The translations under genes were made by a program, and so were the position numbers. Under the pieces are notes generated by a model, which searched no databases, was not told the origin of the DNA, and worked only from the letters and a program-made list of their open reading frames with translations. 40,036 nucleotides of DNA, from positions 1 to 40,036 of the forward strand of contig CAYFXC010000006.1 of the NCBI GenBank assembly GCA_964347045.1, written 5' to 3'. Numbering within the stretch: the stretch's first letter is position 1; the number at the start of each line of letters is the position of its first letter. Below are positions 4,916 to 32,262 of the stretch, piece after piece. This DNA is from an uncultured archaeon (GTDB lineage Archaea; Asgardarchaeota; Hermodarchaeia; Hermodarchaeales; Hermodarchaeaceae).

Positions 4916-4918
4916 CAC

Positions 4919-4944
4919 AAGGTATCTTCTTAGAGAGATACCTT
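4919..4944. terminator. Hairpin between convergent units
   Basis: AAGGTATCT-N8-AGATACCTT inverted repeat followed by a pyrimidine/T tract on +. Confidence 0.55.
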
Positions 4945-4993
4945 CCCTCTCTCTTTTTCAGTGAATCAGTTTTTGTACTTCCCGTAGTGGATA

Positions 4994-13184: not shown

Positions 13185-13562
13185 ATGGCGCTACGAGATT
13201 TCCTCTACCCTCATCTTGAGGTTCAACTCATTCTTGCCCGAGCTTTGGATGTTGATGAATTGCAGGCTGGTCAAGGGAGCCTTTCGAAAGAGTATCAAGA
13301 ACGTGCAGCGCGAATAACTATTGCTTCTCGTGACGCTCAGCGACTAAACCTCGCTGATGGAGAAAAGGTGGAAGTGAGTTCAAAAATTGGGAGTGTAGTT
13401 GTGGTTGCAAAGCTTCATGAAAAGCAACCTGAAGGAATTGTGGTCATGCAACCGGGTCCTTGGGCTTTTGCTGTCGTAGAATCGATGGTTCCTAGTCAAG
13501 GTACTCAAGTCATTATTAAGTCAACTAAAAGACCAATCACGCCAATTGAAAAACTCCCCTAG
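13185..13562 (+). CDS. fwdD: FwdD/FmdD-like protein (molybdopterin-dinucleotide-binding fold), divergent
   Basis: 'SKEY...AA...D AQRLNLADGEKVEVSSKIGSVVV...PEGIVVMQPGPWA' follows the FwdD layout; canonical TGRTxxQG and PSFK motifs are altered. Confidence 0.75.
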   Translation: MALRDFLYPHLEVQLILARALDVDELQAGQGSLSKEYQERAARITIASRDAQRLNLADGEKVEVSSKIGSVVVVAKLHEKQPEGIVVMQPGPWAFAVVESMVPSQGTQVIIKSTKRPITPIEKLP

Positions 13563-13607: not shown

Positions 13608-15050
13608 TTATTTTTTCCTTGATGAAGGAATACCTTTCTTGCTGGGGATTGGTTTTCGTTTTTTCAGAGCTTCATTTTTGATTGCCGTACAAAGCGGGTC
13701 AACGCGACCTCGTTCGAAAAGCAACCGTAAACGCCAATTCTTTTGGATAATTTCTTGAAGTTTTTGTACACGTTCTTGAGCTTTTTGCCGACTAACTTTT
13801 TCTGTTGACCATTGATCCGATTTTGTTTGAATTCTTGGTGAATGTTTTATGGGTGGGGTTTTGATTACACGCTGGTAAATATCTTTATGCGGTGTTTCTT
13901 CCCCAACGAGATGGTCATAAAACATTCTCGCACGTGCGCGCTCCCAGTCTCTGGCTTTCTCAATTTGGGATAATTTGTAACTGTTACGTGTAACTTTAAG
14001 CACCGTTTCAGGACAAGCATTTTCACAAGCCCCGCAAAAAACGCAAATTTCTTTATTGATGGCTATTTTGTCTTTATCACCAGTGGGATAGATTGCCTTC
14101 GTAGGACAGATATTGAAGCAATTGACACACCCAGTGGGGTCACATTTTTCGAGGTTCTGAATTTCGACAGCGCCAGTTAATGGTAATGATACATCTAAGG
14201 CTTCATAAGGACATTTTTGGGCACAAAGGGTGCAGTCGACACAAAGTCCCTCGTCAATGGTCATAGAGCCTTTCACTTTTGGCTCTTTGATGGTTCGTGG
14301 TGGGGCTTTATCACAGGTTACTTTTACTGCATCGGAAGGACAGATGGTTTCACATAGTCCACAATAGTCACATTGTGTCGTGTCGACTCGGATTCCAAAA
14401 GCAGGAGTAAAATCGGGAGGTTTAGGTTTTTCCTCCGACCAGTAAATAGTAATGCATTCGGGGCAAAGGAGTTCACATAGTCCACACCAGGTGCATTTGT
14501 CTTCAGCAATAGCAATTGTTCCCTTTGCATCAGGTTTTCCATCGGCAACACGTTTGGCAGCCTTTGGATCCTTATAAGAGACTAATTGAGTCTTAGGCAT
14601 AACCTTAACTTCAACGGTGATAGCATCACGAGGACAAAGTTTGGCACATAATACACAGGGTGCACATTTTTCTTCATTGAGTTCATGTTTTCCTTTGAGC
14701 CTAGAGTATTGATTGTCAGCAGGTACATCATCAAATCGGGCTTCGATTGCATTGAATAAGCAGGCTGAATCACAGAGTCCACAAAAAGTGCATTTGTCTT
14801 CATCAATAAGTATTAAGGGAGCACCTTCAAGGCGCCCTGCAGCAATTTCTTGTATTGGACCTAAAGTAATTGCGTCCCATGGGCAGGGAATACAAAGGCT
14901 GCAACCCACACATCGTGAAAGATCATATTTGAAATTTTTATTGAGTAACGAGGTTTTCCAATTATAGCGGATATTTGTATCATCTAAGACTTCACTGGTC
15001 ACTTTGGGGCGTTCGCCCACAATGATACGATCTCGTTGGACTTTAGTCAT
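13608..15050 (-). CDS. fwdF: FwdF-like polyferredoxin (8 x [4Fe-4S]) with basic C-terminal extension
   Basis: Eight ferredoxin motifs: CVGCSLC, CTFCGLC, CAPCVLC, CTWCGLC, CDYCGLC, CVDCTLC, CDPTGCVNC, CVFCGAC. Confidence 0.8.
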   Translation of the reverse strand: MTKVQRDRIIVGERPKVTSEVLDDTNIRYNWKTSLLNKNFKYDLSRCVGCSLCIPCPWDAITLGPIQEIAAGRLEGAPLILIDEDKCTFCGLCDSACLFNAIEARFDDVPADNQYSRLKGKHELNEEKCAPCVLCAKLCPRDAITVEVKVMPKTQLVSYKDPKAAKRVADGKPDAKGTIAIAEDKCTWCGLCELLCPECITIYWSEEKPKPPDFTPAFGIRVDTTQCDYCGLCETICPSDAVKVTCDKAPPRTIKEPKVKGSMTIDEGLCVDCTLCAQKCPYEALDVSLPLTGAVEIQNLEKCDPTGCVNCFNICPTKAIYPTGDKDKIAINKEICVFCGACENACPETVLKVTRNSYKLSQIEKARDWERARARMFYDHLVGEETPHKDIYQRVIKTPPIKHSPRIQTKSDQWSTEKVSRQKAQERVQKLQEIIQKNWRLRLLFERGRVDPLCTAIKNEALKKRKPIPSKKGIPSSRKK

Positions 15051-15122: not shown

Positions 15123-16505
15123 CTAGGTACAAGCCTTAATTCGTTGTTTTAACTCTCTTTGGCTTCTGAAATACAAACTCACAGCGATTCCAAGAACAAA
15201 CAGAGCCAAGACTATACCCAGAAAAGAAAAAGGAAGATTCACTTGCCGCGGGTTAATTGCCGGTGGCGGAGCATTAGGAATGCAAGTAAGCCAAGCAGTT
15301 CCACCCTGATAGCCATAACTGGAAGTAAAACCTGCTATAACTAGGTCCCCATCCAAACTTTCAATAAGTGATATTCCAAAATCATTGCCTTGATCACCAT
15401 AGATCTTTTGCCAAAGAACAACACCATTATCATTTAGCCGAACGACGATCATATCAGTCCAAAGACTATCCCCGGATTGTGATATCTCGCCTGTGAAAGC
15501 ATAACCTCCATCAGAACAGAGGGTAATCGCCTGAGCTATCTCATCTAATTCTAGACCTATAGTTTGATTCCAAAGTAGAGCCCCATTTGATGTAGTATGA
15601 ACAACTAAGGCATCATAGCGATCTGTTTCGATATCTTGTGTAAATCCCGCGATAGTCAATTCACCAAGGGCATTACTAACAATACTATTCCCCCGATCAT
15701 ATCCTGCACCTCCAAAGGTTCGATTCCATTCGACCATACCTTGGAAATCGGTTTTTACTACCCACATTCCTTCCCTTGCATTTCCATAACTTTGTGTGAG
15801 TCCGGTAAAAGCTATTCCTTGATCCGCTACCAAGGACATTGAATAGAACCACTCGTCCTCTAATCCCCCGTATTCACGGTACCATTGTAATATACCGTTT
15901 CCATCAAGACAAATTGCGAGGCCATCTAAAGGATTTGTGGGTCGGTAATGCCAAGCCCACCCACATATAACTAAATTTCCGGTTGGTAATTCCATTATTG
16001 CGTGGGCTTCTTGTTGTTCAGTGAACTTTAGAATCCGTTCCCATATTAGATTCCCATCAGGGTCTGTTCGAAATACGAAGGCATAAGAGGATCCATTATC
16101 AATAACTCCTGCTACAGCTAAATCATTATTCTGGCACTCAATCACTGATTGTCCCCTACCGCGGTAATTGCCACCATACAAACGTTCCCATTCAATATTG
16201 CCATCAGAATCTATTTTGGTCATCCAAACATGCTCATCTCCAAGACCTGCTGTTGATTCTATTTTGTATCCAGTTACTACAAATCCACCCAATCGACTTT
16301 CAATAATAGAGTGTGCCTCTCGTGACTCGTGACTATTAAAGAATTGATTCCAGATTTGATCATTTTCACGCTTAAGATAGATTCCAGAAAGCGTTTGAAT
16401 GCTGTGTGTATGAATAGAAGTAAGAGTCGAAGGTGGAAAAAACCACAAAGGAATGTTTATCGAAAAGAGTAACAAAATTAAAAGCAGCCCATCGATTCTC
16501 TGCAA
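15123..16505 (-). CDS. Membrane-anchored repeat (beta-propeller-like) surface protein
   Basis: Signal/TM N-terminus; tandem ~50-aa repeats 'D-x-x-G-x-x-x-W-x-x-x-(Y/F)GG...D-x-G-x-SI'; C-terminal TM helix. Confidence 0.85.
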   Translation of the reverse strand: MQRIDGLLLILLLFSINIPLWFFPPSTLTSIHTHSIQTLSGIYLKRENDQIWNQFFNSHESREAHSIIESRLGGFVVTGYKIESTAGLGDEHVWMTKIDSDGNIEWERLYGGNYRGRGQSVIECQNNDLAVAGVIDNGSSYAFVFRTDPDGNLIWERILKFTEQQEAHAIMELPTGNLVICGWAWHYRPTNPLDGLAICLDGNGILQWYREYGGLEDEWFYSMSLVADQGIAFTGLTQSYGNAREGMWVVKTDFQGMVEWNRTFGGAGYDRGNSIVSNALGELTIAGFTQDIETDRYDALVVHTTSNGALLWNQTIGLELDEIAQAITLCSDGGYAFTGEISQSGDSLWTDMIVVRLNDNGVVLWQKIYGDQGNDFGISLIESLDGDLVIAGFTSSYGYQGGTAWLTCIPNAPPPAINPRQVNLPFSFLGIVLALFVLGIAVSLYFRSQRELKQRIKACT

Positions 16506-16634: not shown

Positions 16635-19085
16635 CTAACGGCTTTTCGTTGTAGTGGTTAGCTCCGAGCCGAGTGGACCCATTTTAAGGATGGTCTTGAC
16701 AAAATCAGTAACAATCTCAGATAACCGGGCTCCCTCGGAGGCTGATGTGCTTCCAAAGATTAAGCGGTTGGGATTAATTCCCATTTCTTTTAGTAGAGGT
16801 AACATTTTGTTAACACGATTTTTTGCCCTTCTCATTCCTGTACGATAATGGCAGTCGGTTTCATAGCAACCTAAGACTGCTACTCCATCTGCTCCTTGGC
16901 TAAAAGCTTCAAGGATGAGTAAAGCATCCAAGCGGTTTGTACATGGCACACGAATCGGAATCATTTGTGGTGGATAGCGAATTCGATTTACGCCGGCTCT
17001 ATCTGCTGCAGCATAGGCACACCAATTACAGAGAAATCCGATGATAATGGGTTGTAGAGGGTTATCTTGACAGGCCGTTTCAACTGCAGAGAGAAGTTGT
17101 TGTCGAGTATATCCTGGTAAATCAAGAGCCCCGGTTGGACAAGCAGCGACACAAGCTCCGCAACCTGTACAAGCTAGCTCATCAATCTTGGGAAATTCAG
17201 AGGTTTCAAATGAGATAGCGTTTGCATCACAAGTCTTTTCACATAACAGGCAATTCTCACATAATGCTTCATTTACCACGGGTGCATAGACTTCTAAGTC
17301 GATTTTACGTCGATGTAGTAGAGAAGACGCCTGAGCAGCAGCTAGTCCAGCATGTGCTACAGAATCAGCAATATCTTTAGGTCCTTGGGAAGTACCGGCT
17401 AGAAATATCCCAGACGAATAAGTTCCAGTTGGATCTAGCTTGGGATGTTTTTCTAAAAAGAAGTTGTTCTCATCCAGTGGAATGTTAAGTAAAGTTGAAA
17501 GTTTTAGATTAGAAGGAGCAGGATCAATTCCAACACTCAAAACGACTAAATCGGCGGGGAACTCGATAGGCTCACAGAGTTCGGTATCTTCAGCACGAAT
17601 AAGAAGCTTCTTGGTTTTGGGATCTTCTTCGATTTCAGCAACCCGTCCTCGAATAAACGTAATCCCATGTTCACGAGCTGCTCGTTCGTAAAGTTCCTCA
17701 AACCCTTTTCCAAACGTTCGAATATCAGTGTAGAAAATAAATACTTCAGAATTGGGCTGGGCGAGACGAAGTTGAACCGCTTCTTTGACAGCATAGGTAC
17801 AACAGACACGACCGCAATAGGGTCGGTTAATCCGGATATCCCGGCTTCCAACACATTGTACAAATGCAATTCGTTTTGGTACATCTCCAGTTGATGGACG
17901 AACAATGACACCACGAGAAGGTCCTGCAGGGTCAAGTAACCGTTCCAGTTCTGGTGCAGTGATTACATCCGGATATCGTTCATAACCGTACTCACTTAGA
18001 TTTTGAGGATTGAAAGGTTCAAAACCCGTTGCAACAACGATTGCACCCACATTGAAGGTATGATCGCGTTCAATATCCTCAAACCGGATGGATTCTTTCT
18101 CACAAACACCAACACAGGATTGACAACCAACACAAGCTTCCATGTCGATATGGGGAGCTAATGGTACTGAGCTGGGATAAGGACGAATTATTGCCTGTCG
18201 AGAACCCATTCCATAGTTATACTCATTGGGTTCTTCAATCGGGCAGATTTCAAGACACTTGTTGCAACCATTACAAGTTTCCAAGTCAACATACCTAGGT
18301 TCTTGATGGATATTGATCTGGTATGCGCCTGGTGTTCCTTTAAGATCTGTGAGTTCACTTAGCGTGAAAACTTTGATTTTCGGATGATTTTCCACTTTTG
18401 TCATGAGAGGTCCTAAAATGCACAAACTGCAATCAAGGCTAGGAAAGAGTTTGTCCCATTTAGCCATATGACCTCCTAAAAACCCACTCTTTTCAACAAG
18501 AACGACTTCATGACCTGCGTTAGCAAGTTGAAGAGCCGATGTAACACCGGCGGGTCCCCCACCCAGTACAAGTACACGCTTGGTAATTGGTACGCTAACA
18601 GAGCTGATGGAAAGTCCATGTTGGGCCATTTCTATTGCTGCATCAATCATAAGACGGGCTTTTGCGGTAGCGGCTTCAGGATTATCCCAATGCACCCAAC
18701 TACATTGTTCACGGATATTTGCGATTGAAAGATGTCCTCGATTTAGTCCTGCTTCTTCTACGGTTTGGCTCATGAGCTCACCTTGAAGCTGTGGCGAGCA
18801 AGCTGCAACCACAACATGACTAACTTTTTTCTTTCGGATTGTATCACGGATTAAATTCAATCCCTGTTCTACACAAAAGTGGGCATCATCAACAACAATA
18901 AGATTAGGTTGCTTCTTGTAATGGTTAATCAACGCGTCAACATTGATAATGCTTGCGATATTTGATCCACAGTGACAAATAAATAATGCCGTTTTAGATG
19001 GTGATTTTTGTGTAAGTTTACGGCGAGTTTTCTTGGGTTTAGTTATCTTACCTTTTATTTTGGAAGGTTTTGCCACCGCAGTCAC
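16635..19085 (-). CDS. hdrA: Heterodisulfide reductase subunit A fused to C-terminal MvhD
   Basis: FICHCGSNI, AACSP, NIREQCSWVH, FAD motif VLGGGPAG, QCVGSRD, CGRVCCTYAVK, two ferredoxin pairs; MvhD part GFLCNWCAYAAAD...IRVPC...GC...CHY. Confidence 0.95.
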   Translation of the reverse strand: MTAVAKPSKIKGKITKPKKTRRKLTQKSPSKTALFICHCGSNIASIINVDALINHYKKQPNLIVVDDAHFCVEQGLNLIRDTIRKKKVSHVVVAACSPQLQGELMSQTVEEAGLNRGHLSIANIREQCSWVHWDNPEAATAKARLMIDAAIEMAQHGLSISSVSVPITKRVLVLGGGPAGVTSALQLANAGHEVVLVEKSGFLGGHMAKWDKLFPSLDCSLCILGPLMTKVENHPKIKVFTLSELTDLKGTPGAYQINIHQEPRYVDLETCNGCNKCLEICPIEEPNEYNYGMGSRQAIIRPYPSSVPLAPHIDMEACVGCQSCVGVCEKESIRFEDIERDHTFNVGAIVVATGFEPFNPQNLSEYGYERYPDVITAPELERLLDPAGPSRGVIVRPSTGDVPKRIAFVQCVGSRDIRINRPYCGRVCCTYAVKEAVQLRLAQPNSEVFIFYTDIRTFGKGFEELYERAAREHGITFIRGRVAEIEEDPKTKKLLIRAEDTELCEPIEFPADLVVLSVGIDPAPSNLKLSTLLNIPLDENNFFLEKHPKLDPTGTYSSGIFLAGTSQGPKDIADSVAHAGLAAAQASSLLHRRKIDLEVYAPVVNEALCENCLLCEKTCDANAISFETSEFPKIDELACTGCGACVAACPTGALDLPGYTRQQLLSAVETACQDNPLQPIIIGFLCNWCAYAAADRAGVNRIRYPPQMIPIRVPCTNRLDALLILEAFSQGADGVAVLGCYETDCHYRTGMRRAKNRVNKMLPLLKEMGINPNRLIFGSTSASEGARLSEIVTDFVKTILKMGPLGSELTTTTKSR

Positions 19086-19154
19086 CGTTTATCTTCGCCC
19101 AGTTTTTAGGCAGCAATATGTGCTTTAACACTTTTTACGTTACTATTTTCGAAT

Positions 19155-19283
19155 TTAATTATAAATTCCACCGCCAATTCGCATAAAGAAGGCCAGAAGA
19201 GTGCCTCCAAATCCGAATCCAAGGAGAGCGTCTGGGGCAGCGATACCGAAGAAAATGAAGATCACGATACCGCCCAAAAGCTT
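19155..19283 (-). pseudogene. hppA: Internal fragment of membrane H+/Na+-translocating pyrophosphatase
   Basis: Manual translation KLLGGIVIFIFFGIAAPDALLGFGFGGTLLAFFMRIGGGIYN* matches the HppA segment 'LLGFGFGG..LA.F.R.GGGIY(TKAADVGADLVGK)'. It is bounded by stops on both sides. Confidence 0.8.
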
Positions 19284-19323
19284 TTAGGAAAAAAGACAGA
19301 AATTTGTAATTGGTGGTGGGGAC

Positions 19324-19797
19324 GTGACTAGAGACGAGCAGAAATACTCTGATTATGTTAAGGATTTGTCAAAAGTACGTGTGACCATGTTGTCTCTTAT
19401 TTCAGGGTTTACGTTCACAACTATTATTTTTCTTCTTTATTGGCTTCCAGACCCAACCAGTCTTCTTGCTCAAATAACTCTTCTCTTCTTAACAATTATC
19501 TTTAGCTTGCTCTTATTCTTGCTAGTTTGGCAAACGGTAATCGTGATGGGTTTATATGATGTGCGTAATCCACCATCTCGTGAAAAATGGGAATTAACCG
19601 TTTTCAATTTGATATTGTTCGTAATTTTCTTTCTTTGGGGTTTAACTCCAACACTGATTTTCTTTCTGTGGAACCTTGTTTATCTTGCACTGGCAGCAGC
19701 TATTATGTGGATTCTAATCTTCATTTTTAGTGAACGCGTAGCACGGGCAATGCGTAAACGCTTAGGCTGGTCAATCAGAGAGGGACTAAAAAGCTAA
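19324..19797 (+). CDS. 4-TM membrane protein of unknown function
   Basis: 157 aa with four hydrophobic helices; GTG start after GGTGGTGGG; AT-rich promoter-like AAAAGCTTTTA upstream. Confidence 0.8.
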   Translation: MTRDEQKYSDYVKDLSKVRVTMLSLISGFTFTTIIFLLYWLPDPTSLLAQITLLFLTIIFSLLLFLLVWQTVIVMGLYDVRNPPSREKWELTVFNLILFVIFFLWGLTPTLIFFLWNLVYLALAAAIMWILIFIFSERVARAMRKRLGWSIREGLKS

Positions 19798-19939
19798 GAG
19801 GGTTTACACTGTAGATAACTTAGGAAACCGTTTTCTAATCTAATTATTGAGGCATTGGGTATATTACACCTCATAGTAATAACCGAAGAGATAAAGGGAG
19901 AAATCTGAAAACATTACTAATAGGCTGTGTCGAAAGTAG

Positions 19940-20407
19940 ATGGTGGACAAAAAAGTAAACCCAATGCAGTTGTACAAGCTTCTTCCCCAGACGAATTGTA
20001 AAAAGTGTGGTATGACTTGTATGGCTTTTGCTACCCGCCTTGCTCTACGTGAAGTGGAATTAAAGGATTGTACGCCCCTTCATGAAGAGGAGCAATACAA
20101 AGAACAAAACGCTAAACTCAATGATCTCATCACACCTCTTCTCGATACCGAGGAAACTGGTCTTAAACTCGATGACACAAAATGCACTGGATGTGGCAAT
20201 TGTGTAGTCGTCTGTCCTGTGGATGCCTCCGCGGAACCAGATACCGCTTCAGGAAAGGCAGCTCGTTCAAATGACACTGTCTTTCGCGTCGAGGATGGTC
20301 GGGTGAAAATCACTAATCTAGAAAAATGTCGACGGTTTCCCCCAGAACGAATGAATTGTCGCGTCTGTGAACAAGGATGCTATATTAACGCCATTGAAAT
20401 ATGGTAG
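19940..20407 (+). CDS. Fe-S-binding domain plus 2x[4Fe-4S] ferredoxin (FwdG-like)
   Basis: N-terminal 'LPQTNCKKCGMTCMAFA...CTPL' FeS domain; CTGCGNCVVVCP and C..CRVCEQGC; immediately upstream of the fwdB-like gene. Confidence 0.85.
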   Translation: MVDKKVNPMQLYKLLPQTNCKKCGMTCMAFATRLALREVELKDCTPLHEEEQYKEQNAKLNDLITPLLDTEETGLKLDDTKCTGCGNCVVVCPVDASAEPDTASGKAARSNDTVFRVEDGRVKITNLEKCRRFPPERMNCRVCEQGCYINAIEIW

Positions 20408-20442: not shown

Positions 20443-21726
20443 ATGCAAGATACGGTTTGCTGTGGTTGCTCAGTGGTCTGCGATGATGTAGCAGTATCAA
20501 AGAAAAAAACAGAGCTACAATCGTTAGGACTCTGTCGACTCGGTCACGAATACTGTAATGCCATCTTCAGTAGCAAACGTCTTACAAAACCCCTACAGAA
20601 AAATAGCAATGATAACCAAAACCCAATCACGTTTAAAGCGGCTCTTCAACAATCCATTAGTCTCCTTTTAGAAAGCAAAAAACCGCTATTCTTGGGCTGG
20701 TCAAATAGTACAACAGAGGCTATCAAGAATGGATTGAAGCTAGCCCAACACACAAAAGGAGTCTTTGATAGTACAGCAAGCTTTGAGTACGGACAACTAT
20801 ACGACGCAAAACTCCAAGGGGGTGAAGCCAGACAACTTCAGTTAGAGGAGGTCCGCGACTTTGCAGACCACATTGTTTATTGGGGAGTCAATCCCGCAGA
20901 AAGCCACCACCGACACGCCAGCCGATATACTGTTTTTCCAATGGGAAAGAATATTCCCGAAGGTCGTGAAAGCCGTGTTGTATCAGTAATAGATATCCGA
21001 GAAACCGAATCAATGCGGCTTGCGAACCATCAGCTCATACTATCACCAAATACTGGAGATGTGGAATTCCTTCAATTTTTAATAGCCGAACTCGAAGGGA
21101 CCCAAGAGCACTTGCCTGAAAATGTGGCTGGCGTTCCTACAATTGAATTTCTTAGCTTTTCCAAACAGCTTCAGGAAGCAGATAATGTTGCCCTATTTTA
21201 TGGAAATGGCCTATTACATGCATCTCATTCTTCCAAAAGCCTACCATTGATCGCTGAAGTGAGAAGACTTCTCACCCGCGATCAGCACCAATGTTGGACT
21301 TTACCAATGATAGCGTATTGTAATACAATTGGTGCTGTGAGAGCTAGTCTTGAAGCCCATAAGCTTCCATTTTCTATTGATTTCAGTTCAACACCTATCA
21401 AACCCGTTAACTCAATCGAAAAGAGCATCACTGATTCTGAATTTGACTGTGCACTCATTGCTGGTTGGGATGCGTTAAGCTTCTTGCCCGGACCTGTGGC
21501 AAAAGCACTTTCTGAAATCCCAATAATTGCGCTATCTACGCATCCTACTCTAACCACGCAAAAATCTTCAATAGTTTTTCCTGTTGCCCTCACAGGCGCA
21601 GAGACTAATGGAACAGTCTATCGGATGGATGGCACAGCAGTAGCATTGAAACCTTTCAACGACCCCCTGAAGGGAATTTTCACCGAGGAAGAACTAATTG
21701 ACCAGTTCTTGACAAATCTCGGTTAA
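20443..21726 (+). CDS. fwdB: Formylmethanofuran dehydrogenase subunit B-like protein, catalytic residues substituted
   Basis: CCGCSVVCDD...CRLG, GWS, 'EVRDFADHIVYWGVNPAESHHRHASRY', 'GTVYRMDG' are FwdB signatures; metal-ligand motif altered (see findings). Confidence 0.88.
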   Translation: MQDTVCCGCSVVCDDVAVSKKKTELQSLGLCRLGHEYCNAIFSSKRLTKPLQKNSNDNQNPITFKAALQQSISLLLESKKPLFLGWSNSTTEAIKNGLKLAQHTKGVFDSTASFEYGQLYDAKLQGGEARQLQLEEVRDFADHIVYWGVNPAESHHRHASRYTVFPMGKNIPEGRESRVVSVIDIRETESMRLANHQLILSPNTGDVEFLQFLIAELEGTQEHLPENVAGVPTIEFLSFSKQLQEADNVALFYGNGLLHASHSSKSLPLIAEVRRLLTRDQHQCWTLPMIAYCNTIGAVRASLEAHKLPFSIDFSSTPIKPVNSIEKSITDSEFDCALIAGWDALSFLPGPVAKALSEIPIIALSTHPTLTTQKSSIVFPVALTGAETNGTVYRMDGTAVALKPFNDPLKGIFTEEELIDQFLTNLG

Positions 21727-21794
21727 TCCGATTTTTCGATAAATGACAATCCTTTAAGCAATATGACCAGTTACTACGAATAGCGGTGCCAACC

Positions 21795-22598
21795 ATGAAA
21801 GTAGCAGTTGCGGGAAAAGGAGGGGTTGGAAAAACACTCGTCGCAGGAACACTTGCACGATTTCTGGGACGAAAAGATATACAAGTCCTAGCCGTCGATG
21901 CCGACCCTACTCCAACGCTAGCATCAACATTGGGAATTCCGCCTGAGATTGCCGAACAAATCGTTCCCCTAACCGAAAACGATGAGCTCATAGAAGAACG
22001 AACAGGCATGAACAAACAGACTTTTGGTGGGATGTTCAAACTCAATCCACATGTATCCGACCTTGCGAAGAAATACGGAGTCCCTGGACCCGATAATGTC
22101 ACGCTTTTAGTTGCCGGAACAGTCACGATTGGTGGAACAGGCTGTATGTGTCCTGCGGGTGCACTTCTCAAAGCGCTCATACGACACCTCATTGTCGGAA
22201 GTGATGAAGCATTTGTCATGGACCTGGAAGCAGGAATTGAAAATCTTGGTAGAGGAACAACACGTGGGATGGATGCCCTCATCACCGTTGTAGAATCAGG
22301 ACAGACTTCAATTTCCACTGTTGCTCGAATTAAGAAGCTTGCTTCAGATATCGGCGTTGATACAATCTTTGCGGTTGGAAACAAAATCATAGATGAAATC
22401 GATGAAAATGCTATTCGGACGACTTTAGAAGAATTGGAAATACCACTGTTAACGGTTATTCCCTTTGACAAAGCAATTCGAAACGCAAATCTGGAAGGTA
22501 AAGCGCCCATAGATTATGCTCCAAATTCAGCGGCTATTCAAGCCATCAAAAAACTCATCCCAGAACTCCAAAACCGGCTTAATCATCGCTTTAAGTGA
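21795..22598 (+). CDS. cooC: CO dehydrogenase/ACS nickel-insertion ATPase (CooC/AcsF family)
   Basis: MKVAVAGKGGVGKT, DADP, FKLNP, Ni-binding GCMCP, DLEAGIENLGRG. Confidence 0.93.
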   Translation: MKVAVAGKGGVGKTLVAGTLARFLGRKDIQVLAVDADPTPTLASTLGIPPEIAEQIVPLTENDELIEERTGMNKQTFGGMFKLNPHVSDLAKKYGVPGPDNVTLLVAGTVTIGGTGCMCPAGALLKALIRHLIVGSDEAFVMDLEAGIENLGRGTTRGMDALITVVESGQTSISTVARIKKLASDIGVDTIFAVGNKIIDEIDENAIRTTLEELEIPLLTVIPFDKAIRNANLEGKAPIDYAPNSAAIQAIKKLIPELQNRLNHRFK

Positions 22599-22604
22599 AA
22601 AGCT

Positions 22605-23210
22605 ATGCCAATTATCGCCTGGGTCAACTTCCTTATTCTCCATGTTGTTACGATTCTTTGTTGGTGGTTTTATATCCGCAGCGTCCAGCCCTATAGTAGA
22701 GCCATGAAATTTGGTCCCATTGCTTGGAAAATAGCAAAACGTGATCGGTTCATCACAGGGATTCTTATGATCGTCATCGTTGTTAACATGCTACTCTGGC
22801 TCTGGTTACCCATTCCAGGACTTGCATGGTTTGTGAGCTTAAACTGGCTCTTCAGTATTCTAATCGGTGTTGTCCTTGCCTGTGTTTTTACACCAATTTG
22901 GATCAAAGGTATAAAGGATGCAGGTCGTGAAACCATGGAACCCTCTGAGTCAACCCAGATGTATGGAGGAATTTACAATTACATACGTCATCCACAAATG
23001 TTGGGTGAGATGCCTTGGTTTGTCATTATCGCTTTATTTCTTAACTCCCTTTTACTTGTGATTTGGTCCATTCTCATGATTCTTATCACAAGCCCAATCA
23101 TCATCTATTACGAAGAAAAGGATTTAGTAGAACGATTCGGTGACGATTATAGGGAATATCAACACCGAACAGGGGCCGTATTCCCAAAGCTTAGAAATTC
23201 GAAAGACTGA
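22605..23210 (+). CDS. Isoprenylcysteine carboxyl-methyltransferase/PEMT family membrane protein
   Basis: 'GIYNYIRHPQMLG' and 'EEKDLVERFGDDYREYQ' motifs; about 5 TM segments. Confidence 0.88.
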   Translation: MPIIAWVNFLILHVVTILCWWFYIRSVQPYSRAMKFGPIAWKIAKRDRFITGILMIVIVVNMLLWLWLPIPGLAWFVSLNWLFSILIGVVLACVFTPIWIKGIKDAGRETMEPSESTQMYGGIYNYIRHPQMLGEMPWFVIIALFLNSLLLVIWSILMILITSPIIIYYEEKDLVERFGDDYREYQHRTGAVFPKLRNSKD

Positions 23211-23259
23211 GGGATTTCATTGCTACCCAAAGCTTTTCGTAACACTTCACGTTAATGTT

Positions 23260-24465
23260 ATGGTGGTGAGCTTTTTGCAGGCCATAACCAATGCAACAAT
23301 TTTATGTCCTGTACAGGGTCGAATAAAAAAAGGAACACTTCTTTTTAATCGTGGAAAAATCGTAGGTGTGGGTAAATCCATTCCAATACCAAGCAAAACC
23401 AAGATTATCGATGTTGATGGACAATATGTAGTTCCCGGATTTGTTGAAGCCCATGCCCATCATGGATTGTTTGATGGAACAATTGGACCGATGGGTCAAG
23501 ATGGCAATGAAATGACTACACCGATTACACCAGAAATGCGAGGAAAAGATGGTTTTTATCCGTTTGAAGGATCCCTTAAGGAGATTCTGAAAGGCGGTGT
23601 AACCACCGTAAATACGGGTCCAGGGTCAGGGAATGTCATTTCGGGAGAAGCGTTTGTTTTCAAACCCATTCCTGAAACAATTATCGAAAACATGATCGTC
23701 TTGTCTCCATCAGGTTTGAAAATCGCATTGGGCGAGAATCCAAAGCGGATTCATGGTCATGAGAATAAACGAATGCCTATGACCCGAATGGGAATTGCTG
23801 CATTACTTCGTAAAACCTTCACTGATGGTCAGAATTATTTGGATGAATGGAAAGCCTTTGGTGCCAAGGCTAAGGAAGCTAAAGAGAAAGGTGAAGCCAT
23901 TCCTAAACCACCTAAACGGGATATCGGGTTTGAAACCATTGCAATGGTTCTTAAACGTGAAATCCCAGTTCACGCCCATTGTCACCGAGCCGATGACATT
24001 GCGACCATCATTCGTATTGTTGAAGAGTTCAATTTGCGATTAGTCCTCATCCATTGCACGGAAGGGCACAAGATAACGAAATTCCTTGCCAAAAAACAAT
24101 ATCCCGCAGTAATTGGACCTACAATGATTTGGTCAGGAAAACCTGAGGTCAGGGAGAAAGGATTCAAGACTGCTGTAATCCTCAATGATGCAGGTGTTAA
24201 AGTAGCCCTTCAAACAGATTCACTTACCCCCGCGCTTTATTTCCCCCTACTTCCAATGCATGCAATTAAGGAGGGAATGAGCCGTGACGATGCACTTAAA
24301 TGTGTCACCATTAACCCCGCAGAGATTTTGAATCTCCAAAACCGAATTGGGTCCTTTGAACCCGGAAAAGATGCAGACATTGTTATTTGGTCAGGTCATC
24401 CCTTTGAATTCTACAGTCAAGTCACCGAAGCCTATATCAACGGCAAGAAAGTGCCAATCGAATAA
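23260..24465 (+). CDS. Metal-dependent amidohydrolase (imidazolonepropionase-like superfamily)
   Basis: PGFVEAHAH, KIALGENPK, HCHRADDI, IHCTEG, 'IGSFEPGKDADIVIW'. Start moved from 23140 to ATG 23260 to avoid overlap. Confidence 0.9.
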   Translation: MVVSFLQAITNATILCPVQGRIKKGTLLFNRGKIVGVGKSIPIPSKTKIIDVDGQYVVPGFVEAHAHHGLFDGTIGPMGQDGNEMTTPITPEMRGKDGFYPFEGSLKEILKGGVTTVNTGPGSGNVISGEAFVFKPIPETIIENMIVLSPSGLKIALGENPKRIHGHENKRMPMTRMGIAALLRKTFTDGQNYLDEWKAFGAKAKEAKEKGEAIPKPPKRDIGFETIAMVLKREIPVHAHCHRADDIATIIRIVEEFNLRLVLIHCTEGHKITKFLAKKQYPAVIGPTMIWSGKPEVREKGFKTAVILNDAGVKVALQTDSLTPALYFPLLPMHAIKEGMSRDDALKCVTINPAEILNLQNRIGSFEPGKDADIVIWSGHPFEFYSQVTEAYINGKKVPIE

Positions 24466-26462: not shown

Positions 26463-28922
26463 GTGAAACTTGGCGAAGCATCAAAACTTAAAGGACAAAC
26501 TGCCACTATTTCACCATCCCTTCACGCTCAAAAAAACGCGCGTAGAACGAAGGATGAATATACATTGACAGAACAAAAACGAGCTCGACTTAAAGCTGAT
26601 AAGCTTGACACCGGATTTGGGTCCTTTCGAAATGTCGAAGTCACTATCGGTAGGATCATCGATGATGATTGGGACGAACCCATGGGACCCACTCCCATGC
26701 CTGATGTTACCACTCTTCGTAGTTGGGATCATAAACTTCTAGCTCGGTACCGACCAGCGTATATGCCAGCATGCCAATTGTGTTGTTTGTGTACGTTTGG
26801 GAAATGCGATTTGACAGGCGGAAAGCGGGGAGCTTGTGGACTGGATATTGAAGCGCAGTCAGCACGAATTGTCTTGGCTGCAGCAAATATCGGGTGTGCG
26901 GCTCATCTTGCACATTCCCGACATATGGTTGACCACTTGATTCACGAATTCGGGCCTCGCTATGAACTCGCCCAAGGGGAAGGAGTTGAAATTGAAGCCC
27001 CACTGAGCCGATTAATAACAGGAATTCGACCCCGAACCTTAGAAGATGCATCAGCAGTACTAGATTATTGTGAAACACAATTAACACACACACTCTCTGC
27101 TGTAGCCACAGGCCAAGAAGGCAGTTGGATTGACTTTGAATCCAAGGCCTTCCATACAGGCATGATCGACCTTCTCGGAATGGAAATAGCCGATCTCGCC
27201 CAGATATCCACCCTTGGATTTCCAAAAGCAGACCCAGAACCCCCTCTGGTTGAAGCAGGAATCGCTTCAATGGACCCCAAAAAAGCCATGATTTTAGCTA
27301 TCGGCCATAACGTTGTACCAGCAACTTATATTATGGACTACGCGACCGAAGCAGGTCTTTTTGATAAAATCGACGTAGCAGGAATCTGTTGTACCGCATG
27401 GGATATCACTCGATATGAAGCAAAAGCAAAAATCGTGGGTCCCATCTCCTGGCAATTACGATTTGTCCGAGCTGGATTTGCGGATGTCGTTGTCGTTGAC
27501 GAACAATGTATCCGCGCAGATATCCTCGAACATGCCAAGAAAGTCAATTCCCCAGTAATTGCCACATGCGATAAGTCAGCCATGGGATTACCCGATCGCA
27601 CTGACGACGACGTGGATGACATCGTAAAAGACCTTGTTTCCGGAAAAACCCCAGGAGTCTATCTCCGAGATTATGAAAAAATCGGTGAAGTCGTCGTCAA
27701 AACCGCAATCAAGATGCATCCAAAACGAAAGAAAAAAGGTTCCCTACCGAGCCAAGCCAAAATAAAAGAACTTGCCACAGCTTGTCGGCAGTGTTTTGAC
27801 TGTGTACGAGCTTGTCCAAATGACCAACCAGTTATGGATGCTGTACTTGCCGCTCAGGAAGGAAATTTCGGACCACTTGCGGATGTATATGATGAATGTA
27901 TCGGGTGTGCCAGGTGTGAATCGGCTTGCCCTAATGATTATGAGCTCCATAGTTGGATGGTAACAGCCGCAAAAGATCGATGGACCCAAGATTCCTTCAT
28001 GGTCCGTTCAGGTCGCGGTGCTATTCAAGATACTGAAATTCGGAATGTAGGACAACCCATTGTATTTGGCGAAATCCCTGGGGTGATTGCTCATGTAGGC
28101 TGTGCCAATTATCCCGATGGTGGCCGCGCCATCCACGATCATGCAGAAGAATTTGCAAGACGACGATTCATTGTAGTCTTCTCAGGGTGCGCTGCAATGA
28201 CCGTAGGTGGCATCAAGGATGAAGAAGGCAAATCCATCTATGAGAGACGACCTGGTACTTTTGATGCTGGGAGCGTCATCAATGTGGGTTCCTGCGTTGC
28301 AAACTCTCACATTGCAGGAGCAGCGATAAAGATTGCAAGCATATTTGCAAAACGAAATCTCCGAGGTAATTACGAAGAAATCGCAGACTACATTCACAAT
28401 CGAGTCGGCGCAGTTGGAATTTCGTGGGGTGCAATGTCACAGAAAGCTGCATCAATCGCAGCCGGATTCTGGCGACTAGGTGTCCCTGTAATAGTCGGGC
28501 CCCATGGAACCAAGTATCGACGTATGCTACTAGGTCGCGCAGATAGAGCGGAGGACTGGATGGTGTGGGATGCCCGAACAGGTGATCGCGTACAAGTTGC
28601 TCCTGGACCAGAACACCTCTTCTACGCCGTTGAAAACTTTGAGGAGTTGATGGTTCTAACTGCAAAACTTACCATCCGACCTAACGATACCAGCAAAGGG
28701 CGAGCCATTAAGCTCAGCCACTACATCGATTTACATGAGACTTACAAAGGCTTCTTCCCCGAGGATGTCCATAGCTACATTCGACGTGAATTTGATATTC
28801 CAATTACCCTCAAGGATAAGATCAAAGCTCAGATGAAAGAAAACAAGTGGAAAGAAAAGCCCATACCCGACCCAACATACTTACGACGAATGGTCTATGG
28901 CGGCAATGGAGGTGGCAATTAA
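26463..28922 (+). CDS. cdhA: CO dehydrogenase/acetyl-CoA synthase complex alpha subunit
   Basis: CCLCTFGKCDL...GACG, GHN, GICCTA, DEQC, two ferredoxin motifs, VGCANYP, GSCVAN, WGAMSQKA. True start may be TTG near 26565. Confidence 0.98.
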   Translation: MKLGEASKLKGQTATISPSLHAQKNARRTKDEYTLTEQKRARLKADKLDTGFGSFRNVEVTIGRIIDDDWDEPMGPTPMPDVTTLRSWDHKLLARYRPAYMPACQLCCLCTFGKCDLTGGKRGACGLDIEAQSARIVLAAANIGCAAHLAHSRHMVDHLIHEFGPRYELAQGEGVEIEAPLSRLITGIRPRTLEDASAVLDYCETQLTHTLSAVATGQEGSWIDFESKAFHTGMIDLLGMEIADLAQISTLGFPKADPEPPLVEAGIASMDPKKAMILAIGHNVVPATYIMDYATEAGLFDKIDVAGICCTAWDITRYEAKAKIVGPISWQLRFVRAGFADVVVVDEQCIRADILEHAKKVNSPVIATCDKSAMGLPDRTDDDVDDIVKDLVSGKTPGVYLRDYEKIGEVVVKTAIKMHPKRKKKGSLPSQAKIKELATACRQCFDCVRACPNDQPVMDAVLAAQEGNFGPLADVYDECIGCARCESACPNDYELHSWMVTAAKDRWTQDSFMVRSGRGAIQDTEIRNVGQPIVFGEIPGVIAHVGCANYPDGGRAIHDHAEEFARRRFIVVFSGCAAMTVGGIKDEEGKSIYERRPGTFDAGSVINVGSCVANSHIAGAAIKIASIFAKRNLRGNYEEIADYIHNRVGAVGISWGAMSQKAASIAAGFWRLGVPVIVGPHGTKYRRMLLGRADRAEDWMVWDARTGDRVQVAPGPEHLFYAVENFEELMVLTAKLTIRPNDTSKGRAIKLSHYIDLHETYKGFFPEDVHSYIRREFDIPITLKDKIKAQMKENKWKEKPIPDPTYLRRMVYGGNGGGN

Positions 28923-28923
28923 A

Positions 28924-29469
28924 ATGATGCGCGCTGAACCATGGCAAACTGCGGAAACATGTGGACCAAAGAAAGCGAACTCCATTACTAAAACTGCTGT
29001 TGTTGGAGCACTTCTAAAGAAAGCGAAATACCCGCTAATTATTGTGGGAACTCAGGCATTAACAGAGAAAACACGCAAGAAATCAATGATTGACTATTTC
29101 ATAGAATTATCCAACACTAGGAATATTCCCATTGTTGCAACAGCCAATACTATCAAAGCTTTCAAAGAAAAAGACTTCAATAACGCCTACTCCTTTGGAG
29201 CCATGGAAATCATGGGAAGACTGCAAGACCATGACTGGATGGTTGCTCCGAAGAAAGGACCCCATGACCTTGTTATGACCTACGGATACCCATACTACAT
29301 GGAATGGCTCATGTTATCAGGACTCATCAATTTCTCTCCCCACATTAAAACCATAACTCTCGGTCGTTATTATCAACCCCATGCAACCTGGAGTTTTCCA
29401 AATCTCAAAAAACAAAACTGGAATGAGGCACTGAAAGAAATCCTTGTCACTACAGGAGGTGCAAAATAA
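28924..29469 (+). CDS. cdhB: ACDS complex epsilon subunit
   Basis: 'KKAKYPLIIVG', 'DHDW', 'GYPYY', 'YYQPHATWSFPNL'; between cdhA and cdhC; ATG 28924 after GGAGGTG. Confidence 0.95.
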   Translation: MMRAEPWQTAETCGPKKANSITKTAVVGALLKKAKYPLIIVGTQALTEKTRKKSMIDYFIELSNTRNIPIVATANTIKAFKEKDFNNAYSFGAMEIMGRLQDHDWMVAPKKGPHDLVMTYGYPYYMEWLMLSGLINFSPHIKTITLGRYYQPHATWSFPNLKKQNWNEALKEILVTTGGAK

Positions 29470-30900
29470 ATGTCGTTTGAAGACCTACCAATCGATGTTG
29501 GTGTTGTTCACGAAGGTGAACGTATTCGCAAAGCCGACATGCAAGTTGAACTAGGTGGACCCAAAATCGAAAAGAAGTTCGAACTAGTCCTTTCTAGGAA
29601 AATGAACGAGATCGAAGACGGAGAAATTCAAATCATAGGTCCAGATCTAAAGGACCTCGAAGAAGGGGGAAGCCATCCCATTGGTATTCTCATTGAGGTT
29701 GCCGGAAAAGAAATTGAACAAGATCTCGAAGGTGTTATTGAGCGACACATCCATGAATATACAAACTTCGTTGAAGGCACTATGCACCTCAATCAACGTT
29801 ATGACGTTTGGATACGCATTGGGAAAAAATCCTTCCAAAAAGGCTTCAACCGCTTCAAAATCCTTGGACAAGTCTACCAACGCCTGTACAAGTCGGAACT
29901 ACCAATCATCGAAAAAATTCAAGTCACCTTTTACACTGATGCTTCGAAGATGAACGAAATCTACGATACGGCTATTGCTACTTATAATGCGCGCGATGAG
30001 CGTACACGTGGTCTTAAGGACGACGAAGTTGATGTTTTCTATGGGTGTACTCTGTGCCAGTCTTTCAGCCCCACTCATATGTGTGTCATCACTGCACAGC
30101 GATATGCGAATTGTGGAGCAATCAGCTGGTTTGACGGTCGTGCAGCTGCTCGAGTCGATCCTAAAGGTCCACTCTTTGCAATAAAAAAGGGCGAAACCAT
30201 TGATGGAGAAAAGGGTGTTTATGCGGGAGTTAATCAAGCATATAAAGAAAAGACTCTGGGCGCAGTTACAGATGTTGCTTTGTATAGTGCTTTTGAGAAT
30301 CCACACACCAGTTGTGGGTGTTTCGAGGCAATTGCATTCATCATCCCTGAAGTTGATGGATTGGGTATTGTTCACCGAGACTTCAAAGGAACCGCTGTCA
30401 ATGGATTGCCATTCTCCACGATGGCTGATTCCACAGCTGGAGGTCGACAAATCCCTGGCTTCCATGGACTAGCAATTGAATATCTGCGGTCACCCAAATT
30501 CCTGACTGTTGATGGGGGATGGGAGCGTATTGTTTGGCTTCCAAAGTCAATAAAGGATCGAGTGTATGACTTCATGCCAGAGACCTTAAGGGACATCATT
30601 CCGACAGAAAATGATGTGTCAAATATTGATGAGTTGAAAACATACCTCAAGGACCACAATCATCCAATTATCGAGCGCTGGGTTGAAACAGGTGCTGCAG
30701 CACGATTGGAAGAAGAAGAACGCAGGGAAGAACTTGTGCCAGCAAGCCAACAGGCGCAACCATTTATAATGCCGGGTCAAATGATGACAACAGTGCCTGC
30801 TGCTGGGGGAGCTCCTGGGTTTCAAATCATCTTCAAAAATGCAAAGATCTATGCTGAGAAAGTCATCATCAAACGCTTGGATGAAAAAGACAAAAAATAG
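29470..30900 (+). CDS. cdhC: ACDS complex beta subunit (acetyl-CoA synthase)
   Basis: EGERIRK, FYGCTLCQSFSPTHMC, CGAISW, PHTSCGCFE A-cluster motifs. Confidence 0.98.
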   Translation: MSFEDLPIDVGVVHEGERIRKADMQVELGGPKIEKKFELVLSRKMNEIEDGEIQIIGPDLKDLEEGGSHPIGILIEVAGKEIEQDLEGVIERHIHEYTNFVEGTMHLNQRYDVWIRIGKKSFQKGFNRFKILGQVYQRLYKSELPIIEKIQVTFYTDASKMNEIYDTAIATYNARDERTRGLKDDEVDVFYGCTLCQSFSPTHMCVITAQRYANCGAISWFDGRAAARVDPKGPLFAIKKGETIDGEKGVYAGVNQAYKEKTLGAVTDVALYSAFENPHTSCGCFEAIAFIIPEVDGLGIVHRDFKGTAVNGLPFSTMADSTAGGRQIPGFHGLAIEYLRSPKFLTVDGGWERIVWLPKSIKDRVYDFMPETLRDIIPTENDVSNIDELKTYLKDHNHPIIERWVETGAAARLEEEERREELVPASQQAQPFIMPGQMMTTVPAAGGAPGFQIIFKNAKIYAEKVIIKRLDEKDKK

Positions 30901-30915
30901 TTGAGGCGATGAATA

Positions 30916-32262
30916 ATGTCGCCTGAAAAAAAGAAAGAGAAAAGCGAAATAACATTCTCAACAGATAATCCCGAATTGGGCATTCTAGGCCCACTTGAAG
31001 CACTTTTCGGAAAATTTGAAGAACTCGAATTGGAAGAGATGACCATTGATGTCGATGAAATCGAAGTCATTGTGCCTCCAGGTGCAGGTACAGGAATGTC
31101 TGATCAAGCCCGACGATTCCTAGCTCAAAATGCCTTTGCGGTTCAACAGTTTGCGCAACAGATGTTATCGGCATTAGGAATCCAGATGCAACTCCCTACT
31201 GGTCAATCAACTACACCAGTAATTCCAGCACCCACTCGTCCTACTCAGCTCCTAAAAACCCGTTTTAAAGCCCCCCTAACTGAATATTCAGGACAGATAC
31301 GTGAAATAACTCTTGGAGCCACGAAAGGTGAAGGGGGTTCACGGAGTAAGACCATTACGATTGGAGGCCATAAGGCCCCTGCATGGAACCTTTTCCAAGC
31401 ACTACCAAAGCATCCACCTGTTGTAGCGGCCGATGTCTTTGATATGCGTATCAAACTCGCCAAAGCAGTGCGTATGCATTACGAAGATGTCATGGATGAC
31501 CCAGTGGATTGGGCACGTTTAGTCATCGATAAATTTGGAGCCGATCTCATCACTTACCATATGATAAGTACAGATCCACTCCTAAACGATACTAGCGCAA
31601 AGGAAGCGATGAAGGGCTTTGAAAATATTCTCCAAAATGTGAAGGTTCCCATCATTGTTGGAGGTTCTGGAGACCCTACAAAAGACGCAGAGTTACTTGC
31701 GTTAGCTGCGGAAGTAGCTGAAGGTGAACGAGTTCTTCTAGCCTCTGCCACAGTTGATATGTGGGAACCCGTGGCGAAAGCTGCGAAAGCCCACGATCAA
31801 TTAGTTTTGTCGTGGACAAGCATTGATATCAATGAACAAAAAGAACTCAATCGTCGTCTCCTCGACTATATTTCACCTGACCAAATCATCATTGACCCCA
31901 CAACAGCCGCGCTTGGATATGGTGCTGAATACAGCTTTACCATTATGCAAAGGATGCGCTTAGCGGGAATAATGGGCGACGAGGAACTACAATTCCCCTT
32001 AAGTAGTGGAACCACTAATGCCTGGGCAGCCCGCGAAGCTTGGATGAAGAAACCCGAACTCGGACCCCGTGAATTGCGAGGTCCCATTTGGGAAAGTACA
32101 ACCGCTTTAATGTTTCTTCTTGCAGGGGTTGATGTGTTTATGATGATGCATCCCGCTGCCATCAAAACGGTACATGATCTAATCGCTTGGCTCAGTACTC
32201 GAATTGACCGGAAACGTCAGGATTTTGTTGATTGGACTCGCTTAGTACTTCCATCAAATTAG
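30916..32262 (+). CDS. cdhD: ACDS complex delta subunit (corrinoid Fe-S protein small subunit)
   Basis: 'LGATKGEGGSR', 'IVGGSGDPTKD', 'DPTTAALGYG', 'NAWAAREAWM', 'MMMHP'. Confidence 0.96.
   Translation: MSPEKKKEKSEITFSTDNPELGILGPLEALFGKFEELELEEMTIDVDEIEVIVPPGAGTGMSDQARRFLAQNAFAVQQFAQQMLSALGIQMQLPTGQSTTPVIPAPTRPTQLLKTRFKAPLTEYSGQIREITLGATKGEGGSRSKTITIGGHKAPAWNLFQALPKHPPVVAADVFDMRIKLAKAVRMHYEDVMDDPVDWARLVIDKFGADLITYHMISTDPLLNDTSAKEAMKGFENILQNVKVPIIVGGSGDPTKDAELLALAAEVAEGERVLLASATVDMWEPVAKAAKAHDQLVLSWTSIDINEQKELNRRLLDYISPDQIIIDPTTAALGYGAEYSFTIMQRMRLAGIMGDEELQFPLSSGTTNAWAAREAWMKKPELGPRELRGPIWESTTALMFLLAGVDVFMMMHPAAIKTVHDLIAWLSTRIDRKRQDFVDWTRLVLPSN

Follow-up and report, generated by a model that had tools for sequence, protein, structure and literature searches.

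The stretch of DNA analysed here (the window, 40,036 nucleotides of contig CAYFXC010000006.1 in assembly GCA_964347045.1) comes from an uncultured Asgard archaeon of the family Hermodarchaeaceae. On its forward strand, at 20443..21726, it carries a gene for a paralogue of FwdB, the CO2-reducing subunit of formylmethanofuran dehydrogenase. This paralogue, referred to below as FwdB*, is a real, conserved and catalytically stripped protein, a pseudo-enzyme with the MopB fold. It belongs to a module of Hdr and polyferredoxin proteins that is tied to CO dehydrogenase/acetyl-CoA synthase (CODH/ACS), is widespread in Asgard archaea and Bathyarchaeia, and is undescribed in the literature. We consider it probable, if with some reserve, that FwdB* is a pterin-free iron-sulfur (Fe-S) relay or scaffold subunit of this module and that the module serves CODH/ACS.

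A FwdB homologue stripped of its active site

The reading frame is uninterrupted over its whole length and encodes 427 residues. No significant Pfam family was found for the protein, and its homology is visible only through NCBIfam, PDB and fold searches. Against the NCBIfam model TIGR03129, FwdB* scores 288.6 bits, under the curated equivalog cut-off of 327.8 bits, while the canonical paralogue on contig C2 of the same genome reaches 521 bits. FwdB of M. wolfeii (5T5I_B) aligns to FwdB* with an E value of 2.4e-52 (HMMER; residues 3-423 against 6-422), and identity to FwdB/FmdB is about 29% at equal length. The AlphaFold2 model of FwdB*, with a mean predicted local distance difference test score (pLDDT) of 95.7, superimposes on FwdB/FmdB chains with a template modelling (TM) score of 0.91-0.95 and a root mean square deviation (rmsd) of about 2.1 Å (Foldseek). 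These comparisons clearly indicate a full-length homologue of FwdB.

The active-site residues are replaced at both of the motifs that carry them. Residues 109-118 of FwdB* read DSTASFEYGQ opposite DNTASVCHGP of 5T5I_B in the HMMER alignment, so that Glu115 (GAG, 20785-20787) and Tyr116 (TAC, 20788-20790), together spanning 20785..20790 on the plus strand, stand where FwdB has the Cys/Sec that ligates the metal and the His next to it. At 21304..21324 (+), residues 288-294 read PMIAYCN in place of PMRGHYN, with Ile-Ala-Tyr (290-292) where FwdB has Arg-Gly-His, and the Arg and His of the CO2/formate pocket are thereby gone. In 68 canonical FwdBs the Cys, His, Arg, Gly and His of both motifs are found at 100%. 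Close homologues of FwdB* vary in the second motif, with Val or Ile at position 290, Ala, Thr or Ser at 291, Tyr, Leu or His at 292, and Cys, Ala or Ser at 293. The ligands of the N-terminal [4Fe-4S] cluster are retained: C6, C9 and C13 (20458-20481) and C31 (20533-20535), spanning 20458..20535 (+), align to the CxxCxxxC...C motif of FwdB and are invariant across every group of relatives examined. An initial reading of the DNA letters, made without database searches (the original prediction), had noted both substituted motifs, the intact four-Cys motif and the full-length reading frame, and all of these are borne out by the alignment and the codons. It had also named another Cys, such as that of AYCN, as a possible occupant of the metal site. 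This is ruled out for Cys293, which is Cys in 50, Ala in 5 and Ser in 4 of 59 homologues and, not being conserved, cannot serve as a substitute ligand.

Conservation beside a canonical paralogue

A protein search of 5.8 billion proteins yielded 58 homologues of FwdB* at 51-76% identity. All are from Asgard metagenome-assembled genomes, under the source names Hermod-, Prometh-, Hod- and Thorarchaeota, and several carry the annotation 'formylmethanofuran dehydrogenase subunit B'. The Glu-Tyr pair is present in 58/58, with Val or Ile at the position of the Arg. Among 400 genomes of the Asgard phylum, the close FwdB* clade is limited to the window's own family, where it occurs in all 18 genomes sampled, from two genera, each with Glu-Tyr. 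The frame is open in these 18 and in all close homologues, several of which are shorter at the N-terminus only. Across the clade 72 positions are invariant, and the ratio of nonsynonymous to synonymous substitution rates (dN/dS) is 0.10-0.17 by the Nei-Gojobori method on unsaturated pairs.

The source genome (2.58 Mb in 83 contigs, 89% complete) also encodes a canonical FwdB on contig C2, with DNTSSVCHGP and PLRGHFN intact, together with the genome's one canonical copy each of FwdD, FwdA and FwdC. Canonical FwdB was found in this genome and in 16/18 relatives. In the same genomes, within-genus identity is 58-73% for FwdB* versus 88-92% for canonical FwdB, and identity between genera is 52-55% versus 77-79%. 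The divergence of FwdB* is thus three to four times as fast as that of canonical FwdB, the pattern expected where catalytic constraint has been lifted and the protein retained. Judged from these sequences, the substitutions go far beyond chance or a strain-specific lesion. The suggestion of a maintained pseudo-enzyme holds up well in the light of the clade-wide changes, the low dN/dS, the canonical fwdB, fwdD, fwdA and fwdC elsewhere in the genome, and the loss of pterin motifs in the partner FwdD* described below. The original prediction had listed close orthologues with a canonical motif as a sign of strain-specific decay, and none of the 58 homologues is of that kind.

Place in the FwdB family

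In a maximum-likelihood tree of 87 sequences (quick IQ-TREE setting, support by SH-aLRT, the Shimodaira-Hasegawa-like approximate likelihood ratio test, only; FhcB not included), FwdB* falls in a 44-row clade with a support of 99. This clade stands apart from canonical archaeal FwdB, including the source genome's own copy and those of methanogens, and apart from the bacterial branch as well. The pocket Arg is absent in nearly every member whose motif was read; in one member (P0084) the motif is scrambled but an Arg is left in it. The Hermod sequences, with Glu-Tyr, and the Thor sequences, with Gly or Ala followed by variable residues at the same site, form sister clades (support 99). Other Arg-less members, from Hodarchaeota, Lokiarchaeia-type genomes and others, keep Cys-His and replace the Arg by Ile, Thr, Ala or Ser, and those from Bathyarchaeia and Hecatellales have Tyr-His or Tyr-Tyr. 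The whole clade is likely to have lost the Arg first, and some of its lineages to have lost Cys-His later, along with the FwdD motifs.

A search of 1.84 billion cluster representatives gave 775 relatives, many of which keep CxxCxxxCDD...C without Cys-His or Arg-Gly-His. This combination is frequent among the weaker matches (P0193-P0268), and the few of these that were sampled for the tree fall in the bacterial branch. Fe-S-bearing, ligand-less relatives of FwdB seem to be common well beyond Asgard archaea, unlike the Fe-S-less FhcB of Methylorubrum. A Methanosarcina contig (sp. UBA293, L131, about 3691-4971) encodes a Cys-less FwdB-like protein with IGNGP and LRSH for VCHGP and MRGH.

A conserved module beside CODH/ACS

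To compare gene neighbourhoods, the proteins of the window were searched by tblastn in flanking DNA taken from 18 genomes and from 80 public contigs. Directly upstream of FwdB*, at a distance of 35 bp, lies the gene for FwdG* (19940..20407, +), in which an N-terminal Fe-S domain of the type found in corrinoid iron-sulfur protein (CFeSP) and RnfB (PF04060; CFeSP large subunit, E 2e-5) is fused to a FwdG-like 2x[4Fe-4S] ferredoxin (5T5I_G, E 8e-11). This gene always adjoins FwdB*. Transcribed divergently from the pair is a gene for an 816-residue HdrA-MvhD fusion (16635..19085, -; HdrA, E 1e-178; MvhD, E 2e-33). Farther out are a 480-residue FwdF-like polyferredoxin (13608..15050, -; 5T5I_F, E 8.6e-42; 7BKB_K, E 7e-41) and FwdD*, a FwdD-like protein with degenerate pterin-capping motifs (13185..13562, +; 8RJA_D, E 1.3e-11). 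Downstream of FwdB*, after 59 bp, comes a CooC/MinD-type P-loop ATPase (21786..22598, +), whose position is conserved in Hermod and Thor loci, and then cdhA, cdhB, cdhC and cdhD of CODH/ACS (26463..32262, +), all over the cut-offs of their models (TIGR00314 at 1105.7 bits, TIGR00315, TIGR00316 and TIGR00381).

The same cluster, with FwdD*, FwdF and HdrA-MvhD facing FwdG*, FwdB*, CooC and CdhABCD, recurs in Hermod, Thor and Hod loci, in three further Asgard families, in Hecatellales and in Bathyarchaeia. In Thor loci cooC-cdhABCD follows directly after FwdB*, and one Bathyarchaeia locus (L066) has the order FeS-FwdG, FwdB*, CdhABC. The syntenic loci number more than 25, and none of them contains fwdA, fwdC, ftr or hdrBC.

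The distribution of the module was followed through 400 Asgard genomes with the FeS-FwdG fusion as its marker, counting matches over residues 4-155. The marker is present in 216 and CdhA in 224 of these genomes. Of 30 families tallied individually, all 15 marker-positive families have CdhA, and 14 of the 15 marker-negative families lack it. Four families (f12, f27, f29 and f30) have FwdB and lack both marker and CdhA, and among genera of the Thor family compared by hand, those with only a canonical-type FwdB match also lack both. From family to family in Asgard archaea, the module goes with CODH/ACS rather than with Fwd, a pattern that should not be read as a statistic, since genomes that are related do not count as independent.

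Probable loss of the pterin cofactor

Canonical FwdD carries the motifs L-[IL]-T-G-R-T-x-x-Q-G, G-P-W-A-N and T-G-M-P-x-F-K-G. The Hermod FwdD* has LILARALDVD for the first of these (ARALDVD opposite TGRTxxQG), PWA[F/Y] for PWAN (PWAF in the window) and a six-residue deletion, and the Thor FwdD* has AHSFEAD and GPWAL. In the lineages that keep Cys-His in FwdB* (the Hod locus L068 and locus L052 of family f26), FwdD* retains RTAEQG, GPWAN or GPWAS, and P-[HS]-[FY]-K. The loss of TGRTxxQG, PWAN and PxFK is thus found in exactly the same lineages as the loss of the FwdB* Cys, which means that the two subunits degenerate together. Within FwdB* itself, conservation of 90% or more in the 68 canonical FwdBs marks 91 columns, of which the Hermod proteins retain 46. 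About 15 columns are kept in Cys-His-bearing relatives and lost in Hermod and Thor; the RGH motif contributes its Gly and His to them, the GxG loop its first Gly and the DP motif its Pro. The positions of Glu115 and Tyr116 are not fixed in the Thor sister clade. The degenerate FwdD* motifs, the lost columns and the drift in Thor all point towards loss of the tungsten/molybdenum (W/Mo)-bis-pterin guanine dinucleotide, and from this evidence the bis-pterin cofactor of FwdB* has very probably been lost.

Proposed role and alternative explanations

We propose that FwdB* descends from the CO2-reducing subunit of formylmethanofuran dehydrogenase and is no longer catalytic. It has retained the fold and the N-terminal [4Fe-4S] cluster, but Glu now stands for the Cys that ligates W/Mo and Tyr for the catalytic His, and the substrate pocket is without its Arg and His. 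It would work with the degenerate FwdD*, the FeS-domain-FwdG fusion, the FwdF-type polyferredoxin and the HdrA-MvhD flavoprotein. The module would correspond to the electron 'wire' of the methanogen Hdr-Fwd supercomplex minus its chemistry, without FwdA, FwdC or HdrBC, and FwdB*/D* would form an Fe-S-bearing end-piece or docking scaffold of this wire. As a whole, the module may exchange low-potential electrons with CODH/ACS, whose genes sit alongside. An Fe-S-bearing scaffold was one of the options put forward in the original prediction, and it fits the conserved partners; for the regulator offered beside it, nothing was found that points that way.

Several observations weigh against this proposal. 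In the window cdhA lies 4.7 kb downstream of FwdB*, and opposite-strand genes stand in between, so that co-transcription with cdh is only a possibility there. HdrBC and MvhAG are encoded on other contigs (HdrB copies on C15, C9, C14 and C48, none in the window; MvhA and a free MvhD also elsewhere), away from the module's HdrA. Segments of the pterin-nucleotide-binding type (WGxNP..H.RH, D.R.T, GxG and G.E..GT.YRMDG) are still conserved in FwdB*. Lastly, Glu115-Tyr116 is strictly invariant in Hermod while drifting in Thor, and a pure scaffold needs no such invariance. FwdB* may bind some ligand, or the Glu-Tyr pair may have a specific structural role.

The last two of these points would suit a neofunctionalised enzyme, in which pterin or another metal or ligand is still bound and Glu115 and Tyr116 make up a new active site that acts on something other than CO2 or formate. 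So would the retention of a FwdD-like cap in the cluster, a fold nearly identical to that of FwdB, the Cys-His kept by relatives in the same clade, and a possible likeness of Glu115 to the Asp ligand of NarG-type enzymes. We nevertheless regard such an enzyme as unlikely. The cap has lost its three pterin motifs together with the FwdB* Cys, and the further canonical-invariant positions, including those of the GxG loop and the DP motif, are gone. At this site the Thor sister clade shows Gly or Ala next to variable residues, so that the shared module works there without a fixed residue, and FwdB* evolves several times faster than its catalytic paralogue. In addition, we know of no Glu-ligated Mo/W-bisPGD enzyme.

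A more specific form of the scaffold proposal can be put forward tentatively, as a possibility that we rate as rather doubtful. Here FwdB*/D* would be the docking end of an undescribed supercomplex in which low-potential electrons pass from a bifurcating HdrA-MvhD through FwdF and FeS-FwdG straight to CODH/ACS without free ferredoxin, either for the reduction of CO2 to CO or for corrinoid reactivation, and the invariant Glu-Tyr would be a new interface or ligand site.

It is very unlikely that FwdB* belongs to an archaeal Fhc-like complex, in which it would replace FwdB beside FwdA and FwdC so that formyl-methanofuran would undergo hydrolysis to formate with no redox step. This had been the other option of the original prediction, and it draws on the loss of Cys, His and Arg common to FhcB (PMC6926001) and FwdB* and on the presence of FwdA and FwdC as single copies in the genome. 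The syntenic loci, however, contain no fwdA, fwdC or ftr, and the neighbouring amidohydrolase is 3OOQ-like and not FwdA. FwdB* keeps the Fe-S domain and a FwdD partner, unlike FhcB, and its conserved partners are electron carriers, which would be superfluous for a hydrolase. It lies outside the bacterial branch, where FhcB-type sequences are expected (FhcB itself is not in the tree), and surface positions that are invariant in canonical FwdB, the NPG loop among them, are missing throughout its clade. The PDB sequence search with FwdB* gave no FhcB match at E<=1, and the model fits FhcB (6S6Y_F) poorly, with a TM score of 0.66 and an rmsd of 4.0, against a TM score of at least 0.91 for FwdB. 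The Fhc-like explanation fails every testable defining feature except the shared loss of catalytic residues and is not supported. A functionless relic (a decaying duplicate) or a mis-assembled gene is scarcely credible: the missing catalytic residues and faster evolution would fit it, but it is already contradicted by the open frames, the low dN/dS, the clade-invariant positions and a synteny kept across phyla, and the clade-wide Glu-Tyr, the purifying selection and the canonical FwdB elsewhere in the genome mean that FwdB* is not a case of decay.

If the proposed supercomplex exists, it would stand to acetogenesis as the Hdr-Fwd supercomplex stands to methanogenesis, and it would belong to the archaeal lineage closest to eukaryotes. 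Roughly one in two of the Asgard genomes sampled has the module, which may explain how very low-potential Wood-Ljungdahl electrons are supplied or disposed of in these non-methanogenic archaea, and the handling of such electrons bears on hydrogen-dependent models of the eukaryotic host. There is a practical side as well, in that metabolic reconstructions of Asgard archaea can miscount this dead paralogue as Fwd, given its database name. The FwdB* clade also illustrates how a Mo/W enzyme could be converted stepwise into an Fe-S scaffold.

Other genes in and outside the window

In Hermod loci only, one to three PEMT-like genes and an amidohydrolase gene are inserted between cooC and cdhA. In the window these occupy 22605-24465 (+) and encode a PEMT/ICMT-type membrane methyltransferase and a 3OOQ-family amidohydrolase. 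The amidohydrolase (23140-24465) was considered as an analogue of FwdA/FhcA and ruled out, as it matches 3OOQ with an E value of 2e-94, has no FwdA match and is confined to Hermod loci. The FeS-FwdG fusion is likewise not the FmdG of Methanomicrobiales, since the Methanoculleus protein matches only its C-terminal ferredoxin half. The cdhE gene (gamma subunit) is located outside the window, about 70 kb from cdhABCD, at 101862-103238 of contig C6; in Thorarchaeota loci a CdhE-type N-terminus comes right after cdhD.

The region between hdrA-mvhD and FeS-fwdG (19086-19939) measures 855 bp here versus about 250 bp in related Hermod loci. It contains an orphan open reading frame of 157 residues with a GTG start (19324-19797), for which there was no Pfam or NCBIfam match and no tblastn match at any related locus. 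A mobile element was ruled out for this region, since it lacks terminal repeats and occurs only once in the genome. A gene at 15123-16505 (-), placed between those for the polyferredoxin and HdrA-MvhD, encodes a 460-residue beta-propeller-like protein with weak matches to PQQ_2 and SBBP repeats. Only Hermod loci have it, in some cases as two diverged copies; the Thor, Hod and Bathyarchaeia clusters do not. Farther upstream, at 4994-6322 (-), is a gene for a RuBisCO-like protein that scores 337 bits with the MtnW/DK-MTP-1-P enolase model and 266 bits with the form III model, both under the cut-offs, and adjoins a pyruvate, phosphate dikinase gene (7364-10087).

Comparison with known systems

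A literature search found no description of FwdB*. Some sequences filed as FwdB are known to lack the Cys, and 83 Asgard FwdB homologues have been counted, with neither the FwdB* clade nor its context described (PMC10100899). Cofactor-less MopB proteins are themselves not new, as FhcB (PMC6926001; PMC10100899), NuoG/Nqo3 and the 'Molybdop' protein (PMC12054007) are all examples. FhcB of Methylorubrum extorquens (6S6Y) is a structural subunit related to FwdB in which Ser62 replaces Cys118 (PMC6926001). Cys, His and Arg are not conserved in either protein, but FhcB is bacterial, has no Fe-S domain and no FwdD, and is encoded with fhcA, fhcC and fhcD (PMC6926001), whereas FwdB* has cluster ligands, FwdD*, electron-carrier neighbours and a distinct structure. 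'Molybdop' is a non-catalytic FdhA-like protein of type II hdrA clusters in Methanosarcinales and ANME archaea (PMC12054007). It and the C-terminal domain of NuoG/Nqo3 share with FwdB* the MopB fold, the loss of the Cys and, in the case of FwdB* very probably, of the cofactor, and a proposed structural role in HdrA-containing redox complexes. 'Molybdop' differs in belonging to another MopB lineage, near FdhG/FhcB, in having FdhB and HdrBC as partners, and in having no link to CODH/ACS.

Closer in gene content is the 'Fwd-Hdr' cluster of Methanonezhaarchaeia strain YNP3N, where a second FwdBD with FwdF and FwdG stands with HdrABC and has been proposed to oxidise formate (PMC12700198). Like the Hermod module, it has an extra FwdB/D set without FwdA or FwdC beside FwdF, FwdG and HdrA, and electronic coupling between Hdr and FwdBD has been proposed for it (PMC12700198). 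In YNP3N, however, HdrBC is adjacent and FwdBD is presumed to be competent, whereas the Hermod module lacks the Cys, His and Arg, has no HdrBC, carries HdrA fused to MvhD and abuts cooC-cdhABCD. Methanosarcina has an uncharacterised fwdG2B2D2 cluster and hdrA1-pfd (PMC2838876); the Cys-less protein on the Methanosarcina contig mentioned above may be the FwdB2 of this cluster, which would then lack the metal ligand too.

The catalytic relatives themselves, FwdB/FmdB (5T5I_B, 8RJA_B and 7BKB_H of M. hungatei), share with FwdB* their length, fold and N-terminal [4Fe-4S] motif, and the partners of FwdB* are homologues of their FwdD, FwdF and FwdG; the methanogen proteins, too, are wired to HdrA. 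FwdB* differs in its Glu, Tyr and Ile-Ala-Tyr at the active site and its score under the TIGR03129 cut-off, in having a degenerate FwdD partner and no FwdA or FwdC neighbour, and in forming a clade of its own beside a canonical FwdB in the same genome. Compared with the Hdr-Fwd/Fmd supercomplexes of methanogens (7BKB; PMC13580544), the Hermod cluster is without HdrBC and without both reaction centres of formyl-methanofuran synthesis, and it has in common with them HdrA, MvhD, FwdF, FwdG, the Fe-S domain of FwdB, and FwdD.

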